Shown here: positions 16,392 to 51,961 of the stretch, piece by piece
Position numbering within the stretch: position 1 is the first letter of the stretch
How the letters are laid out: every line of letters begins with the position of its first letter
Source: Escherichia coli
Lineage (GTDB): Bacteria; Pseudomonadota; Gammaproteobacteria; Enterobacterales; Enterobacteriaceae
DNA: 58,190 nt
Assembly: GCF_003334255.1 (NCBI RefSeq)
Contig: NZ_QOWU01000031.1
Strand: one strand, 5' to 3'
The notes under the pieces: model-generated
Told to the model about the DNA's origin: nothing
Seen by the model: the letters and a program-made list of their open reading frames with translations, nothing else
Databases searched by the model: none
Program-made: the position numbers and the translations under genes

Positions 16392-16550
16392 CCCTTACCT
16401 TTAAAGCGGATGCGATTTATATCGCATAAGAGTGCAGTACTCATGCCGGATGCGGCATGAGTACCATATCCTTCCTGAAAATCGCGCAAATTCTATATAT
16501 TGCAGAGATCATGTAGGCCTGATAAGCGAAGCGCATCAGGCAATGTTACA

Positions 16551-43556: not shown

Positions 43557-44999
43557 TTAAGCGGGTAATGTGATAACAAACCTTGTCCCCCGCGCATCCG
43601 ACGTTACCGCAACCGTGCCTTTATGCGCGACAACAATCGATTTCACTATCGCCAGGCCAATACCGCTACCTTCACCTTTTCGCTGGCGGGAGGGGTCAAC
43701 GCGATAGAAACGGTCAAACAATCGCGGTAAGTGCTCGGGCGCAATGGGCGTACCGGGGTTTTCGACGATAACTTGCACCAGGTGATCGACCGTCTGACAG
43801 CGCACTACAATTGTCTCTCCGGTTGGCGTATAACGCAGGGCGTTCGAAAGCAGGTTGCTTAGCGCCCGACGCAGCATCAGCGGATCGCCCGCGACCTGAC
43901 ACTTGTCGCCAACAAACCGCAACTCCACGCCGCGATCTTCCGCTAACGCCTCGAAAAAATCGAACACTTTGCCGACTTCATCCGCCAGGTTGAGCATTTT
44001 CTTTTCGGGGATTAGCTGGTTGTTATCGGCCTGAGCGAGAAACAGCATATCGCTGACCATTTTCGCCATTCGCGTCAGCTCTTCGAGATTAGAGTAGAGC
44101 ACATCTTCCAGCTCCTTCTGGCTGCGCGACTGGCTGAGGGCGATTTCGGTTTGCGTTATGAGATTCGTAATTGGTGTGCGAATTTCGTGAGCGATATCCG
44201 CTGAGAAATTGGACTGGCGGGTAAAGACATCCTCAATACGCTCGATCATATGGTTGAACGACAGTACCAGCTGTTCCAGCTCAATGGGCACGGTCTGCGG
44301 GTCAAGGCGAACGTCGAGATCTTTCGAGGTAATATTCTGGATTTGACGGCTGACGCTGCGGATCGGCGCGTGACCTTTATGTACCGCCAACAGCACGATA
44401 AAGACGATCAGGATGCTGATTACCGATGCGGTCATAATAAGTTTATTCATCAAATCATTTATGTAATGAAGATGAAAATCGATCGAAAGCGCGATGTAGA
44501 GCGTATAAATCGGTTTGCCGTCAACCAGCGGGCCAACCGGTAAGTTAATCATCCGCCAGTTGCTGTGTTCCATATGCCCGTGACCGTGCCCTGGCATCAT
44601 AATCGTCGGGCCGGAAAGGAGATACACCTCGCCGCCCCGCGCGTCTTTATCGGGTATGGCGTCACGCGTAAACTCGCGGATATCGGGCGCACCGGGGGAG
44701 TGATACACCGTTTTACCCTGACTATCTGCCAGGGAAATCAACACATTGGAATAACCACTGACGATATCTTCCAGCGTCATTAAGCGTCGGGCTTGCGTTT
44801 CGTCAGGGTGATTTAGTACCCGTTCAAGGGTGGCGCTAATCTCTTTTAAATCATTAATATCCTGCTCGGCAAAATGCACTTTTACTGAGTGGATCATGAT
44901 CCATGCAAAGGCGAAAAACGCCGCGATGGTGGCCAGGCTGATAAAAAAGGTCAGGCGGGTTGCCAGCGAAAACGGGCGCTGAAATGGCTTACTGACCAT
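43557..44999 (-). CDS. cusS: Copper/silver-sensing histidine kinase
   Basis: 480 aa from the internal Met ([10 protein letters not shown]...). Two TM segments, HisKA H-box ([10 protein letters not shown]) and HATPase domain. Confidence 0.9.
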
Positions 45000-45672
45000 C
45001 CGGCACCTCAAGCATGTAACCCACGCCGCGCACGGTTTGAATCAGCTTCGGCTCAAAGTCGTTGTCGATTTTGCCGCGTAGCCGCTTCACCGCCACATCA
45101 ATGGCGTTAGTGTCGCTGTCGAAATTCATGTCCCATACCTGCGAGGCGATAAGCGAGCGGGGCAGCACTTCGCCCTGATGGCGAAGGAAAAACTCCAGCA
45201 GAGTAAATTCTTTACTGGTCAGAGTGATGCGCGTGCCGCTGCGGGTGACTTTGCGGCTGACGAGATCGACCATCAGATCGGCAACCTGAAACTGACTTTC
45301 GATAATCACCGCCGCCCCGCGCCGCAGGAGAGTGCGCACCCGCGCCAGCAGTTCAGCAAAAGCGAACGGCTTCACCAGATAGTCATCGGCCCCCAACTCC
45401 AGCCCCTTGACGCGATGTTCAATGGTGCCAAGCGCGGTAAGCAACAGAATCGGCATCCCTTTATTGGCGGAGCGCAACATGCGCACGATATCCCAGCCGT
45501 TCACGTCCGGCAGCATAATATCGAGGATTATCAGGTCATAATCTCCGGTCATCGCCAGATGGTAGCCATTCAGCCCGTTGTCGGCCAAATCGACCACAAA
45601 ACCGGCTTCGGTTAACCCTTTGGTCAAGTATTCTCCGGTTTTCTTTTCATCTTCGACAATCAGCAGTTTCAT
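44989..45672 (-). CDS. cusR: OmpR-family response regulator
   Basis: 227-aa ORF (MKLLIVEDE...) with receiver and winged-helix domains; overlaps the cusS start. Confidence 0.9.
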
Positions 45673-45737
45673 ATTTCCTCCACATGTTGCCCGGGCAATT
45701 CTAGAGTAGCGGGATCAGATGGCAATCGCTTATTGGC

Positions 45738-45759
45738 AAAATGACAATTTTGTCATTTT
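45738..45759. promoter_or_regulatory. CusR box: perfect palindrome AAAATGACAATTTTGTCATTTT in the cusR-cusC divergent promoter region
   Basis: 22-bp perfect inverted repeat seen directly, placed between the divergent cusRS and cusCFBA operons. Confidence 0.8.
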
Positions 45760-45828
45760 CCTGTCACCGGAAAATCAGAGGCTGGCGAGTAAAGTTGGCG
45801 GCATAAAATCACCAGAAATTATGAGCCT

Positions 45829-47208
45829 ATGTCTCCTTGTAAACTTCTGCCATTTTGTGTGGCCCTTGCGCTAACCGGTTGTTCACTGGCACCGGATTAT
45901 CAGCGCCCGGCAATGCCCGTACCGCAGCAGTTCTCACTCAGCCAGAACGGCCTCGTTAACGCAGCAGATAACTATCAGAACGCGGGCTGGCGCACCTTTT
46001 TTGTTGATAATCAGGTGAAGACGCTGATTAGCGAGGCGCTGGTGAATAACCGGGATTTGCGCATGGCGACGCTGAAAGTGCAGGAGGCACGGGCGCAATA
46101 TCGTCTGACTGATGCCGACCGCTACCCACAGCTCAATGGCGAGGGCAGCGGCAGCTGGAGCGGTAATCTTAAAGGGAATACCGCCACGACACGGGAGTTT
46201 TCGACCGGCCTTAACGCCAGCCTTGACCTCGATTTTTTCGGTCGCTTAAAGAACATGAGCGAAGCCGAGCGACAAAATTATTTAGCCACTGAGGAAGCTC
46301 AGCGCGCGGTGCATATTCTGCTGGTTTCTAATGTCGCGCAAAGCTATTTCAATCAGCAACTGGCGTATGCGCAATTGCAAATAGCCGAAGAAACGCTGCG
46401 TAATTATCAGCAGTCATATGCGTTTGTCGAAAAACAACTGTTGACCGGTAGCAGCAATGTTCTGGCGCTGGAACAGGCTCGCGGGGTGATAGAAAGTACC
46501 CGCAGTGACATCGCTAAACGTCAGGGGGAACTGGCGCAGGCGAATAATGCATTGCAACTGTTATTGGGAAGCTACGGCAAGCTGCCGCAAGCGCAGACAG
46601 TAAACAGCGACAGTCTGCAAAGCGTTAAATTACCGGCGGGCTTGTCGTCGCAAATCTTATTGCAGCGCCCGGATATTATGGAAGCTGAACACGCGTTAAT
46701 GGCGGCTAATGCCAATATTGGTGCTGCGCGTGCGGCATTTTTCCCGTCTATCAGCCTGACCAGCGGAATATCGACCGCCAGCAGCGATCTGTCGTCATTA
46801 TTTAACGCCAGCAGCGGGATGTGGAATTTTATACCCAAAATTGAGATCCCCATTTTTAATGCCGGACGCAACCAGGCCAATCTGGATATCGCCGAAATTC
46901 GCCAGCAGCAGTCGGTAGTGAATTATGAACAGAAAATCCAGAACGCCTTTAAAGAAGTGGCAGATGCGCTGGCATTACGTCAAAGCCTGAACGATCAAAT
47001 CAGCGCCCAGCAGCGTTATCTGGCGTCGCTGCAAATTACTTTGCAACGGGCGCGGGCATTATATCAGCACGGCGCGGTAAGTTATCTGGAAGTGCTGGAT
47101 GCCGAGCGTTCTTTATTTGCAACCCGACAAACCTTACTTGACCTGAATTATGCCCGTCAGGTCAACGAAATTTCTTTATATACCGCACTTGGTGGCGGTT
47201 GGCAGTAG
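45829..47208 (+). CDS. cusC: Outer-membrane efflux lipoprotein (TolC family) of the Cus system
   Basis: 459-aa ORF; lipoprotein signal with lipobox LTGC; synteny. Confidence 0.9.
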   Translation: MSPCKLLPFCVALALTGCSLAPDYQRPAMPVPQQFSLSQNGLVNAADNYQNAGWRTFFVDNQVKTLISEALVNNRDLRMATLKVQEARAQYRLTDADRYPQLNGEGSGSWSGNLKGNTATTREFSTGLNASLDLDFFGRLKNMSEAERQNYLATEEAQRAVHILLVSNVAQSYFNQQLAYAQLQIAEETLRNYQQSYAFVEKQLLTGSSNVLALEQARGVIESTRSDIAKRQGELAQANNALQLLLGSYGKLPQAQTVNSDSLQSVKLPAGLSSQILLQRPDIMEAEHALMAANANIGAARAAFFPSISLTSGISTASSDLSSLFNASSGMWNFIPKIEIPIFNAGRNQANLDIAEIRQQQSVVNYEQKIQNAFKEVADALALRQSLNDQISAQQRYLASLQITLQRARALYQHGAVSYLEVLDAERSLFATRQTLLDLNYARQVNEISLYTALGGGWQ

Positions 47209-47234
47209 TAATTTTTAACTCCAGGAGAGAATAA

Positions 47235-47567
47235 ATGAAAAAAGCACTGCAAGTCGCAATGTTCAGTCTGTTTACCGTTATTGGCTTTAATGCCCAGGCT
47301 AACGAACATCATCATGAAACCATGAGCGAAGTACAACCGCAGGTTATTAGCGCCACTGGCGTGGTAAAAGGTGTTGATCTGGAAAGCAAAAAAATCACCA
47401 TCCATCACGATCCGATTGCTGCCGTGAACTGGCCGGAGATGACCATGCGCTTTACCATCACCCCGCAGACGAAAATGAGTGAAATTAAAACCGGCGACAA
47501 AGTGGCGTTTAATTTTGTCCAGCAGGGCAACCTTTCTTTATTACAGGATATTAAAGTCAGCCAGTAA
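47235..47567 (+). CDS. cusF: Periplasmic copper/silver chaperone
   Basis: 110-aa ORF with signal peptide and His/Met-rich metal site. Confidence 0.9.
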   Translation: MKKALQVAMFSLFTVIGFNAQANEHHHETMSEVQPQVISATGVVKGVDLESKKITIHHDPIAAVNWPEMTMRFTITPQTKMSEIKTGDKVAFNFVQQGNLSLLQDIKVSQ

Positions 47568-47582
47568 CCCAGGTTTAATGAT

Positions 47583-48806
47583 ATGAAAAAAATCGCGCTT
47601 ATTATCGGCAGCATGATCGCGGGCGGTATTATTTCTGCGGCAGGTTTTAACTGGTTTGCAAAGGCTGAACCGCCCGCAGAAAAAACGTCGACCGCAGAAC
47701 GTAAAGTCTTATTCTGGTACGACCCGATGTATCCCAATACGCGGTTCGATAAACCAGGTAAATCGCCGTTTATGGATATGGATCTGGTGCCGAAATATGC
47801 CGATGAAGAGAGTTCTGCGTCTGGTGTGCGCATTGACCCGACTCAGACGCAGAATCTGGGGGTGAAAACGGCTACCGTCACGCGCGGGCCGCTGACTTTT
47901 GCCCAGAGTTTCCCGGCGAATGTCAGTTACAACGAGTATCAGTATGCCATTGTGCAGGCTCGCGCTGCCGGGTTTATCGACAAGGTGTATCCGCTTACCG
48001 TGGGCGATAAAGTGCAAAAGGGCACACCGCTTCTCGACCTGACCATTCCCGACTGGGTGGAAGCGCAGAGTGAGTATTTACTGCTGCGCGAAACCGGCGG
48101 TACGGCGACCCAGACTGAAGGCATTCTTGAGCGGCTGCGACTGGCGGGAATGCCGGAGGCGGATATTCGCCGCCTGATCGCCACGCAAAAAATCCAGACT
48201 CGCTTTACGCTCAAAGCGCCCATTGATGGCGTGATCACCGCGTTTGATCTGCGCGCGGGAATGAATATCGCCAAAGATAACGTGGTCGCGAAAATTCAGG
48301 GTATGGACCCGGTGTGGGTCACTGCTGCGATCCCGGAGTCCATCGCCTGGCTGGTGAAAGATGCCTCGCAGTTTACGCTCACCGTTCCGGCGCGACCTGA
48401 TAAAACACTCACCATCCGCAAATGGACCCTGCTACCCGGCGTGGATGCCGCGACCCGCACGCTACAACTGCGTCTGGAAGTCGACAACGCCGACGAGGCG
48501 CTAAAACCAGGCATGAACGCCTGGTTGCAACTCAATACCGCCAGCGAACCGATGCTGCTCATTCCGTCACAGGCGCTGATTGATACCGGCAACGAACAGC
48601 GGGTGATTACCGTTGATGCCGACGGGCGCTTTGTACCGAAACGCGTTGCCGTTTTCCAGGCATCGCAAGGTGTCACCGCATTACGCTCTGGTCTGGCGGA
48701 AGGTGAAAAGGTGGTTTCCAGCGGCCTGTTCCTGATTGATTCCGAAGCCAATATTTCTGGCGCACTGGAGCGGATGCGCTCTGAAAGTGCTACCCATGCG
48801 CATTGA
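47583..48806 (+). CDS. cusB: Membrane fusion protein of the Cus RND efflux system
   Basis: 407-aa ORF; synteny. Confidence 0.9.
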   Translation: MKKIALIIGSMIAGGIISAAGFNWFAKAEPPAEKTSTAERKVLFWYDPMYPNTRFDKPGKSPFMDMDLVPKYADEESSASGVRIDPTQTQNLGVKTATVTRGPLTFAQSFPANVSYNEYQYAIVQARAAGFIDKVYPLTVGDKVQKGTPLLDLTIPDWVEAQSEYLLLRETGGTATQTEGILERLRLAGMPEADIRRLIATQKIQTRFTLKAPIDGVITAFDLRAGMNIAKDNVVAKIQGMDPVWVTAAIPESIAWLVKDASQFTLTVPARPDKTLTIRKWTLLPGVDAATRTLQLRLEVDNADEALKPGMNAWLQLNTASEPMLLIPSQALIDTGNEQRVITVDADGRFVPKRVAVFQASQGVTALRSGLAEGEKVVSSGLFLIDSEANISGALERMRSESATHAH

Positions 48807-48817
48807 GGGAATAACCA

Positions 48818-51800
48818 ATGATTGAATGGATTATTCGTCGCTCGGTGGCGAACCGTTTTCTGGTGCTGATGGGCGCGTTATTTCTGAGTATCTGGGGCAC
48901 CTGGACCATCATTAACACGCCAGTGGATGCGCTGCCGGATCTCTCCGATGTGCAGGTGATTATTAAAACCAGCTATCCCGGCCAGGCACCGCAAATCGTT
49001 GAAAATCAGGTGACTTATCCGCTAACCACCACCATGTTGTCGGTGCCTGGCGCGAAGACTGTGCGTGGTTTCTCGCAGTTTGGCGACTCTTATGTGTATG
49101 TCATTTTCGAAGATGGTACCGATCCGTACTGGGCGCGTTCGCGGGTGCTGGAATACCTCAACCAGGTACAGGGTAAGCTGCCTGCGGGAGTCAGCGCCGA
49201 GCTGGGGCCAGATGCCACGGGTGTTGGCTGGATCTATGAATATGCACTGGTGGATCGCAGCGGTAAGCACGATCTGGCCGATTTACGCTCATTGCAGGAC
49301 TGGTTTCTCAAATATGAGCTAAAAACCATCCCTGACGTTGCGGAAGTGGCGTCGGTGGGCGGTGTGGTGAAAGAGTATCAGGTGGTTATCGATCCTCAGC
49401 GCCTGGCACAGTATGGCATCAGTCTAGCCGAAGTAAAAAGCGCGCTGGATGCTTCAAACCAGGAAGCGGGCGGTTCGTCGATCGAACTGGCGGAAGCGGA
49501 ATATATGGTGCGCGCCAGCGGCTATCTGCAAACGCTCGACGACTTTAATCACATCGTTTTAAAAGCCAGTGAAAATGGCGTGCCTGTTTATCTGCGTGAT
49601 GTTGCGAAGGTCCAGATTGGACCGGAAATGCGCCGGGGCATTGCCGAACTGAACGGCGAAGGCGAAGTGGCAGGCGGGGTGGTGATCCTGCGCTCCGGCA
49701 AAAACGCCCGTGAAGTGATCGCCGCCGTGAAGGACAAACTGGAAACGCTGAAAAGTAGTCTGCCGGAAGGCGTGGAGATAGTTACAACATACGATCGCAG
49801 CCAGCTCATTGACCGCGCCATCGACAACCTCAGCGGCAAGTTGCTGGAAGAGTTTATTGTGGTGGCGGTAGTCTGTGCGCTGTTTCTCTGGCATGTGCGC
49901 TCGGCGCTGGTGGCGATTATTTCGTTGCCGCTGGGGTTGTGTATTGCTTTTATTGTCATGCACTTCCAGGGACTGAATGCCAATATTATGTCGTTGGGTG
50001 GCATTGCGATTGCCGTCGGGGCGATGGTCGATGCTGCTATCGTCATGATCGAGAATGCGCATAAACGGCTGGAAGAGTGGCAGCACCAGCATCCTGACGC
50101 CACGCTGGATAATAAAACGCGCTGGCAGGTGATCACCGATGCGTCTGTTGAAGTGGGTCCGGCGTTGTTTATCAGTCTGCTGATTATCACGTTGTCGTTT
50201 ATCCCGATCTTCACCCTGGAAGGGCAGGAAGGGCGTCTGTTTGGCCCGCTGGCGTTCACTAAAACCTATGCGATGGCGGGCGCGGCGCTGCTGGCGATCG
50301 TAGTGATCCCGATCCTGATGGGCTACTGGATCCGTGGCAAAATTCCGCCGGAAAGCAGTAACCCGCTCAATCGCTTTTTGATTCGTGTTTATCATCCTCT
50401 ATTGCTGAAAGTACTGCACTGGCCGAAAACCACGCTGTTGGTGGCAGCGCTTTCGGTGCTGACGGTTCTCTGGCCGCTCAATAAAGTTGGCGGGGAATTT
50501 TTACCGCAGATCAATGAAGGCGACTTGTTGTATATGCCATCGACGCTGCCGGGGATTTCCGCAGCAGAGGCGGCGAGTATGCTGCAAAAAACCGACAAGC
50601 TAATTATGAGCGAACCTGAAGTGGCGCGGGTATTTGGCAAAACCGGGAAAGCGGAAACCGCCACCGATTCTGCTCCGCTGGAGATGGTAGAAACGACCAT
50701 CCAGCTTAAGCCGCAGGAGCAGTGGCGGCCAGGCATGACGATGGACAAAATCATTGAGGAACTGGATAACACCGTGCGTCTGCCGGGGCTGGCGAATCTG
50801 TGGGTGCCGCCAATTCGTAACCGTATCGATATGCTCTCAACCGGCATTAAAAGCCCCATCGGCATTAAAGTTTCCGGCACTGTGCTGGCGGATATCGACG
50901 CGATGGCGGAGCAAATTGAAGAAGTGGCACGAACGGTGCCAGGCGTAGCTTCTGCGCTTGCCGAGCGGCTGGAAGGTGGGCGCTATATCAACGTTGAGAT
51001 TAACCGTGAAAAAGCCGCACGTTACGGTATGACGGTGGCGGATGTGCAGTTGTTTGTGACTTCTGCGGTGGGCGGGGCGATGGTTGGCGAAACGGTGGAA
51101 GGGATTGCCCGTTATCCAATTAATCTGCGTTATCCGCAAAGCTGGCGCGATAGTCCGCAGGCACTGCGCCAGTTGCCGATCCTGACGCCGATGAAGCAGC
51201 AAATCACCCTGGCAGACGTGGCCGACGTTAAAGTCTCTACCGGACCGTCGATGCTGAAAACCGAGAATGCGCGCCCGACGAGCTGGATTTATATCGATGC
51301 CCGCGATCGTGACATGGTGTCGGTGGTTCACGATTTGCAAAAAGCGATAGCTGAAAAAGTGCAGTTAAAACCAGGCACCAGCGTGGCGTTTTCCGGGCAG
51401 TTCGAGTTGCTGGAGCGCGCCAACCATAAGCTGAAACTCATGGTGCCGATGACGCTGATGATCATCTTCGTGCTGTTGTATCTGGCGTTCCGTCGGGGGG
51501 GCGAAGCGTTGCTGATTATCAGCAGCGTACCGTTTGCGCTGGTGGGCGGCATCTGGTTGCTGTGGTGGATGGGCTTTCATCTTTCCGTGGCGACGGGCAC
51601 TGGCTTTATCGCCCTCGCCGGGGTCGCCGCCGAATTTGGCGTGGTGATGCTGATGTATTTACGTCACGCCATAGAGGCCGAGCCGTCGTTGAATAATCCG
51701 CAAACATTCAGTGAGCAGAAGCTGGATGAGGCGTTGTATCACGGCGCGGTACTGCGCGTGCGCCCGAAAGCGATGACGGTGGCGGTGATTATCGCCGGTC

Positions 51801-51961
51801 TGCTGCCGATTCTGTGGGGAACGGGGGCTGGTTCAGAGGTGATGAGCCGGATTGCCGCACCGATGATTGGCGGCATGATCACCGCACCTTTGCTGTCGCT
51901 GTTTATTATCCCGGCGGCGTATAAGCTGATGTGGCTGCACCGACATCGGGTACGGAAATAA
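48818..51961 (+). CDS. cusA: RND heavy-metal efflux permease
   Basis: 1047-aa ORF with 12-TM RND architecture. Confidence 0.95.

Follow-up and report, generated by a model that had tools for sequence, protein, structure and literature searches.

The CusR box between cusR and cusC of Escherichia coli: a known operator with a conserved half-site on the cusC side

What is the nearly palindromic element that lies between the divergently oriented genes cusR and cusC of Escherichia coli, and how much of the neighbouring DNA belongs to the same site? We addressed this question in an E. coli sequence of 58,190 nucleotides (contig NZ_QOWU01000031.1; "the window" below is this whole stretch), in which a preliminary description, made from the letters alone, had reported a perfect 22-bp palindrome at positions 45738–45759, centred in the divergent promoter region and matching the binding box of phosphorylated CusR. 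The element is almost certainly the operator ("CusR box") of the copper/silver-responsive two-component system CusS-CusR. This box is already known and is an ordinary part of the standard account of copper regulation in E. coli.

The genes on either side are indeed cusR and cusC. To the left, on the minus strand, lie cusR (44989–45672; NCBIfam score 507.9, curated cut-off 420), whose product, a response regulator of the OmpR/PhoB family, binds the box, and cusS (43557–44999; score 984, cut-off 423), which encodes the Cu(I)/Ag(I) sensor histidine kinase. To the right, on the plus strand, is the regulated efflux operon cusCFBA (45829–51961), made up of cusC (45829–47208; score 903, cut-off 598), cusF (47235–47567; score 204, cut-off 143), cusB (47583–48806), and cusA (48818–51961). 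A 701-bp stretch across the spacer (45400–46100) matches several RefSeq E. coli chromosomes with cusR/cusC annotation at 100% identity; one of them is annotated with cusS, cusR, cusC, cusF, cusB, and cusA in that order. Of 5426 complete E. coli genomes, 5337 contain the stretch. The divergent spacer is 156 bp long with its midpoint at 45750.5; the centre of the box is at 45748.5, with 65 nt from the box to the cusR start codon and 69 nt to that of cusC, in agreement with the central position first reported. On a larger scale, the distance from the cysS-ybcI region to cusR is 18,043 bp in NZ_CP025903.1, which is 100% identical to the window at both ends, and 16,200 bp in the window (about 29200–45400), so an indel of about 1.8 kb distinguishes the two sequences at some point in this interval.

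Read directly from the window, positions 45738–45759 are AAAATGACAATTTTGTCATTTT, exactly the 22-mer originally given. The reverse complement, AAAATGACAAAATTGTCATTTT, mismatches it at the two central positions only; a position-by-position check pairs 45738–45747 perfectly with 45759–45750, 20 of the 22 positions are symmetric, and outward of both ends the symmetry stops. Because T stands opposite T at positions 11 and 12, the element is a hyphenated inverted repeat of the form 10+2+10 and not the perfect 22-bp palindrome of the preliminary description. The box, defined by its sequence (AAAATGACAA-TT-TTGTCATTTT) and by its exact match to the published consensus, has no strand of its own. Its left arm (45738–45747, plus strand) is AAAATGACAA with half-site TGACA at 45742–45746, and its right arm (45750–45759, plus strand) is TTGTCATTTT with half-site TGTCA at 45751–45755. 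Between them, the central TT (45748–45749, likewise strandless) is not self-complementary and occupies the "nn" of the consensus; this dinucleotide differs among species (AT, CG, TG, AA, and others). The core of the box, 45741–45756, has the 6-4-6 layout ATGACA-ATTT-TGTCAT.

Symmetry alone is weak evidence for an operator, since a perfect 10-2-10 repeat occurs somewhere in 9% of shuffled windows (300 dinucleotide-preserving shuffles) and, when any spacer of 0–4 is allowed between arms of at least 10 bp, the figure rises to 29% of 300 such shuffles. Perfect inverted repeats of this kind (arms of 10 bp or more, spacer no longer than 4) number three in the whole 58-kb window, and as a bare palindrome the box is only modestly unusual. 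The other two are both 10-4-10 repeats. One, ACTCATGCCGGATGCGGCATGAGT (16439–16462), adjoins glxK and looks like a REP-type repeat, since E. coli genomes carry the surrounding 301-bp stretch at up to 8 places (median 3); the other, CCGGATGCGAGTTTTCGCATCCGG (29366–29389), is single-copy, lies in a stretch annotated cysS, ybcI, and may be a terminator hairpin that our simple scan does not call. The shuffling frequency of 9%, together with the presence of the 20-base pattern in A/T-rich Firmicutes and Mollicutes MAGs in which no copper genes were detected, is what can be said for a chance A/T-rich palindrome without function. We consider that reading extremely improbable, and it is already contradicted by the published CusR binding data described below. 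The box exceeds chance because it sits in a 156-bp divergent spacer, matches a 20-base consensus exactly, and is conserved, being near-invariant in E. coli where the adjacent DNA is polymorphic and kept beside cusR across orders of Proteobacteria with a fixed promoter geometry. Moreover, a match to the box with up to 3 mismatches appeared in 0 of 100 shuffles, and the 58-kb window contains no second copy even when 3 mismatches are allowed.

Self-complementary DNA of this kind could also act as RNA, as a hairpin or as a transcription terminator or attenuator, instead of as a protein-binding site. The strand does fold (-10.8 kcal/mol, z = -2.65 versus shuffles) and a short T run follows the stem, but the fold is only moderately stable, the terminator scan found no terminator-like site here (the A/U-rich stem is below the scan minimum of three G-C pairs), and Rfam gave no match at E ≤ 1. 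In addition, the element is upstream of both predicted promoters (below), so neither operon should transcribe it, and its central bases vary freely while its arms are fixed, as expected for a pair of protein half-sites. We therefore give an RNA-level role practically no credence.

The identity of the element as the CusR box rests on an exact match to the published site and on independent published binding data at the same spacer. All 20 specified bases of the published CusR box, AAAATGACAAnnTTGTCATTTT, are matched at 45738–45759; that box was located between cusRS and cusC(F)BA (Yamamoto and Ishihama 2005, as quoted in PMC11195947). For E. coli K-12, the sequence "TGGCAATCGCTTATTGGC AAAATGACAATTTTGTCATTTT TCTGTCACCGGAAAAT" has been printed as the DNase I-footprinted CusR site, flanked by the -35 regions of PcusR and PcusC (S1 text, PMC9725139). 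CusR ChIP-chip gave one peak genome-wide, and it is in this spacer (bioRxiv 10.1101/2020.08.17.251918); genomic SELEX placed peaks of both CusR and its paralogue HprR there (PMC8249747); plasmid-borne decoy copies of the site alter how CusRS responds in vivo, and the reported induction of PcusR is about 5-fold (PMC9725139). Reg-Seq found a copper-dependent activator footprint at cusC (PMC12132413), and the need for a homologous palindrome in copper activation has been proven by mutation in Pseudomonas (PMC11195947). A single CusR box is reported in K-12 (bioRxiv 10.1101/2020.08.17.251918; PMC11195947); there is one in the 58-kb window, and the median number of places with the box and its flank is one per E. 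coli genome. The direct evidence for CusR binding and expression was published for K-12. The K-12 box agrees with that of the window at all 22 bp, centre included, and has the same flanking genes and the same position in the spacer. Thus, from sequence alone the preliminary description had recognised a real operator, and its assignment to CusR is borne out by the 20 of 20 consensus bases and by the footprint, ChIP-chip, genomic SELEX, and decoy titration in K-12.

Within the species the box is nearly invariant. Of 5335 E. coli records, 5149 have exactly the same 30 nt over the box and 8 nt of its left flank (45730–45759), 184 have one mismatch, and 2 have two. The neighbouring 30 nt of the spacer, 45769–45798, are identical in only 132 of the 5335 records, a low number that arises because the window has a minority G at 45781. 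The other strain difference beside the box is at 45760, immediately outside it, where the window has C and K-12 has T; this base falls in the spacer of the PhoB site discussed below. E. coli N96 (L040:151-180), one of the two records with two mismatches, has the box variant AAAATGACAGTATTGTCATTTT, in which the innermost base of the left arm and one central base are changed.

An exact scan for the 20 specified bases in one genome per species returned 37 loci. By tblastn with the Cus proteins of the window, cusR/cusS homologues adjoin the box in three further Escherichia lineages, Citrobacter koseri, six Providencia species, Shimwellia, Psychromonas, a Rhodocyclaceae MAG, and Acinetobacter. In Providencia, CusR is about 70% identical to that of E. 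coli and CusC only about 41%, and the remaining spacer cannot be aligned with that of E. coli. The genes directly downstream of the more distant boxes encode a CopM-family metallochaperone, a copper-resistance multicopper oxidase, or an RND adaptor. The box itself was the criterion by which these loci were chosen, which leaves their flanks and gene context as the only independent evidence. Many further matches of the scan lay in MAGs of A/T-rich Firmicutes, Mollicutes, and candidate phyla that have no cus homologues; these were treated as probable chance or unrelated occurrences. Shimwellia pseudoproteus (L006:5520-5541) has a different arrangement: instead of separating divergent genes, the box follows cusRS on the same strand and precedes a CopM-family gene, again with the third half-site (see below) on the target side.

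The same scan also found the 20 bases with a CG centre, AAAATGACAACGTTGTCATTTT, beside LacI-family genes in a Comamonadaceae MAG (L003:1529-1550), Xylophilus (L007:3299-3320), and Klebsiella spallanzanii (L025:4221-4242), with no cus genes near. These three boxes seem to be look-alike operators that serve another family of regulators, and repressors of the LacI/GalR family bind similar palindromes, which raises the question of whether the window element could be one of their operators. It has a TT centre and not CG, however, the annotated stretch from nfrA to pheP contains no LacI-family gene, and direct binding of CusR has been published; a LacI/GalR operator is thus about as implausible here as an RNA hairpin.

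A test of conservation unbiased by the box is provided by plasmid paralogues reached via the CusR protein, for which we read a Klebsiella plasmid with sil and pco; this route was taken because a search of plasmids with the spacer DNA returned only E. coli records that carry the cus locus itself, and no sil or pco match. On the Klebsiella plasmid the core is present in the silC-silR spacer (ATAATGACAATGTTGTCATTTTT), the silE promoter (ATGACAAAGATGTCAT), and the pcoE promoter (ATGACATTTTTGTCAC). These sil and pco "copper boxes" have a TGACAAnn(T/A)TGTCA core, a third GTCA 11 bp downstream, a AAACAGAG motif, and a -10 at offsets 31–36, all as in cus, but they keep the outer A4/T4 tracts only in part (ATAA..., TAAA..., AAGG...) and their cognate regulators are SilR and PcoR; CusR has been reported to control pcoE also (PMC11195947). 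On the silR side of the sil spacer (L039:20001-20090), TGTAAT at offsets 3–8 after the box forms an in-phase half-site of the HprR/AgrR type, which has no counterpart on the cusR side in E. coli, where the sequence is CAATAA.

Is the operator confined to these 22 bp? On the cusC side the right-arm half-site is repeated directly, 11 bp farther downstream, as a third TGTCA half-site (45762–45766, plus strand). We oriented 13 lineages and paralogues toward their target genes and compared them (cus, sil, pco, and distant copper promoters). GTCA is present at offset 4 after the box in 13 of 13 on the target-gene side and in 0 of 13 on the other side, and GTCA occurs elsewhere only twice among 741 positions; the figure of 13 of 13 is partly circular, since some distant loci were oriented by that very half-site. 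Independent of the choice of orientation is a second regularity, a -10-like TAnnnT exactly at offsets 31–36 (30 nt after the box) in 11 of the 13 promoters. By this comparative geometry, the putative cusC -10 in the window is TAAAGT at 45790–45795 (plus strand), which would place the cusC start near 45802 and the centre of the box near -53.5; the start is taken from geometry because no mapped cusC transcription start was found in the literature searched. The third half-site would then lie near -38, abutting a weak -35 of the cusC promoter.

Between the third half-site and the putative -10 lies AATCAGAG (45773–45780, plus strand; offsets 14–21 after the box), a conserved motif resembling AAnCAGAG. 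It is kept in the cus promoters of E. coli, C. koseri, Providencia, and Shimwellia and in plasmid silC, silE, and pcoE, and the literature searched yielded no published explanation of it. It may be a degenerate fourth in-phase half-site. Psychrobacter has a perfect TGTCA in this slot.

The geometry on the regulator side is looser. The predicted cusRS promoter (45698–45725, minus strand; 10 of 12 in a consensus scan) has a -35 TTGCCA (45725–45720), a 16-bp spacer, and a -10 TAGAAT (45703–45698), and the published PcusR -35 label falls in the same stretch (S1 text, PMC9725139). The -10 TAGAAT is kept in C. koseri, Providencia, and silR. E. coli and Providencia, however, have box-to-promoter distances on this side that are 13 bp apart, so that the spacing is less constrained here.

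The third half-site itself is not new: it is contained in a PhoB ChIP-seq table, has been suggested for CusR, and has been shown for AgrR. The PhoB table lists TGTCATTTTTCTGTCACC at cusR/cusC (PMC10294691). The corresponding PhoB site in the window, TGTCATTTTCCTGTCACC (45751–45768, plus strand), consists of the right arm plus the third half-site, and a single spacer base, at 45760, separates it from the K-12 allele. Its two TGTCA-type half-sites form a direct repeat 11 bp apart, and TGTCA(T/C) repeats with this spacing are likewise found in pho boxes such as that of phoA (TGTCATAAAGTTGTCACG); the difference is that the repeat in the window overlaps the inverted site of a second regulator. It ends 22 nt upstream of the putative cusC -10, if that -10 is right. 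Canonical pho boxes lie about one helical turn closer to the -10 than this. Expression of cusC was 208 in wild type and 50 in a phoB deletion (PMC10294691).

A second additional regulator is HprR, the CusR paralogue, which binds the same spacer and sequence and has its strongest genomic SELEX peak here (PMC8249747). The HprR/CusR box at hiuH-hprR (CATTACAAAATTGTAATG), a different locus outside the window, has the same 6-4-6 inverted layout, and CusR and HprR bind both boxes; its half-site is GTAATG where that of the cus box is GTCAT. The use of the same or overlapping DNA by HprR and PhoB was absent from the preliminary description.

Could the site, then, belong mainly to another OmpR/PhoB-family regulator such as HprR or PhoB, the functional unit being the head-to-tail TGTCAT-N5-TGTCAC at 45751–45768 and the inverted symmetry incidental? 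The PhoB ChIP-seq site lies exactly on the right arm and third half-site and the loss of phoB lowers cusC expression 4-fold; the HprR peak is the strongest of that regulator; head-to-tail binding is the norm in the OmpR/PhoB family, and SELEX suggests that it is possible for CusR~P (S1 text, PMC9725139); and a third half-site in 13 of 13 promoters would fit a tandem unit. Nevertheless, we judge this very unlikely. Copper induction of cusC requires CusRS, CusR ChIP-chip and genomic SELEX both peak here (bioRxiv 10.1101/2020.08.17.251918; PMC8249747), and the left arm, which a purely tandem site would not need, is conserved as much as the right in the cus, sil, and pco promoters, including the paralogues found independently of the box. 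HprR and PhoB add to CusR and do not replace it.

With CusR kept as the regulator of this site, its head-to-head arrangement still calls for comment. Such an arrangement is unusual for the OmpR subfamily, and the S1 text of PMC9725139, which makes this point and notes the SELEX indication of head-to-tail binding by CusR~P, adds that "an additional half-site may exist downstream" of the CusR site. The PDB has no CusR-DNA structure, the nearest entries being the PcoR DNA-binding domain (2jzy) and full-length DrrD (1kgs). A functional parallel is the AgrR box of Cupriavidus metallidurans, in which ATKACANNNNTGTMAT, a 6-4-6 inverted repeat, and a direct repeat in phase with it are both involved in binding and both needed for activation (PMC7380067). 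Window positions 45741–45756, ATGACAATTTTGTCAT, fit the AgrR consensus ATKACA-N4-TGTMAT exactly, and the promoter-proximal in-phase direct repeat of AgrR resembles TGTCA at 45762–45766, 11 bp after 45751–45755. The window site thus has both the 6-4-6 core and the in-phase direct repeat of heavy-metal OmpR-family operators of the AgrR/CopR/PcoR type. AgrR is nonetheless a different regulator from a different organism, and it acts unphosphorylated in the mutant studied (PMC7380067).

These comparisons lead us to propose, tentatively and with less than even confidence, that the box is just the upstream portion of a longer composite operator with rigid spacing, made of the inverted pair, the in-phase third half-site (possibly with a degenerate fourth), and a fixed -10 that lies 30 nt after the box. 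This layout would be common to cus, sil, pco, and distant proteobacterial copper promoters, and CusR-family activators, and not PhoB alone, might bind at three or four half-sites, in a mixture of head-to-head and head-to-tail orientations. What is new here is the comparative evidence (13 of 13 and 11 of 13), and the idea of an extra half-site has precedents in the CusR S1 text and in AgrR.

According to the literature on this sequence, periplasmic Cu(I) or Ag(I) activates CusS, CusR becomes phosphorylated, and the box is bound. From this single site CusR activates cusCFBA to the right and its own cusRS operon to the left, the latter by the 5-fold mentioned above (PMC9725139). An extra or tandem protomer at the third half-site (45762–45766, about -38) could contact RNA polymerase, as do other activators of the OmpR/PhoB family. 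Other signals reach the same DNA: HprR, which responds to H2O2 or HOCl, recognises the box as well, and PhoB, bound to the right arm and third half-site, raises cusC expression under phosphate limitation.

As a discovery the box carries little weight, having been footprinted in 2005. The modest addition made here is that the operator has a conserved, asymmetric extension toward the target gene, with its distance from the -10 fixed. This extension bears on the more general matter of how winged-helix regulators of the OmpR/PhoB family activate transcription from a head-to-head site, and the composite operator, if real, would account for the ability of an OmpR-family protein to act from a palindrome. 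The extension is also relevant to how one stretch of DNA integrates copper (CusR), oxidant (HprR), and phosphate (PhoB) signals.
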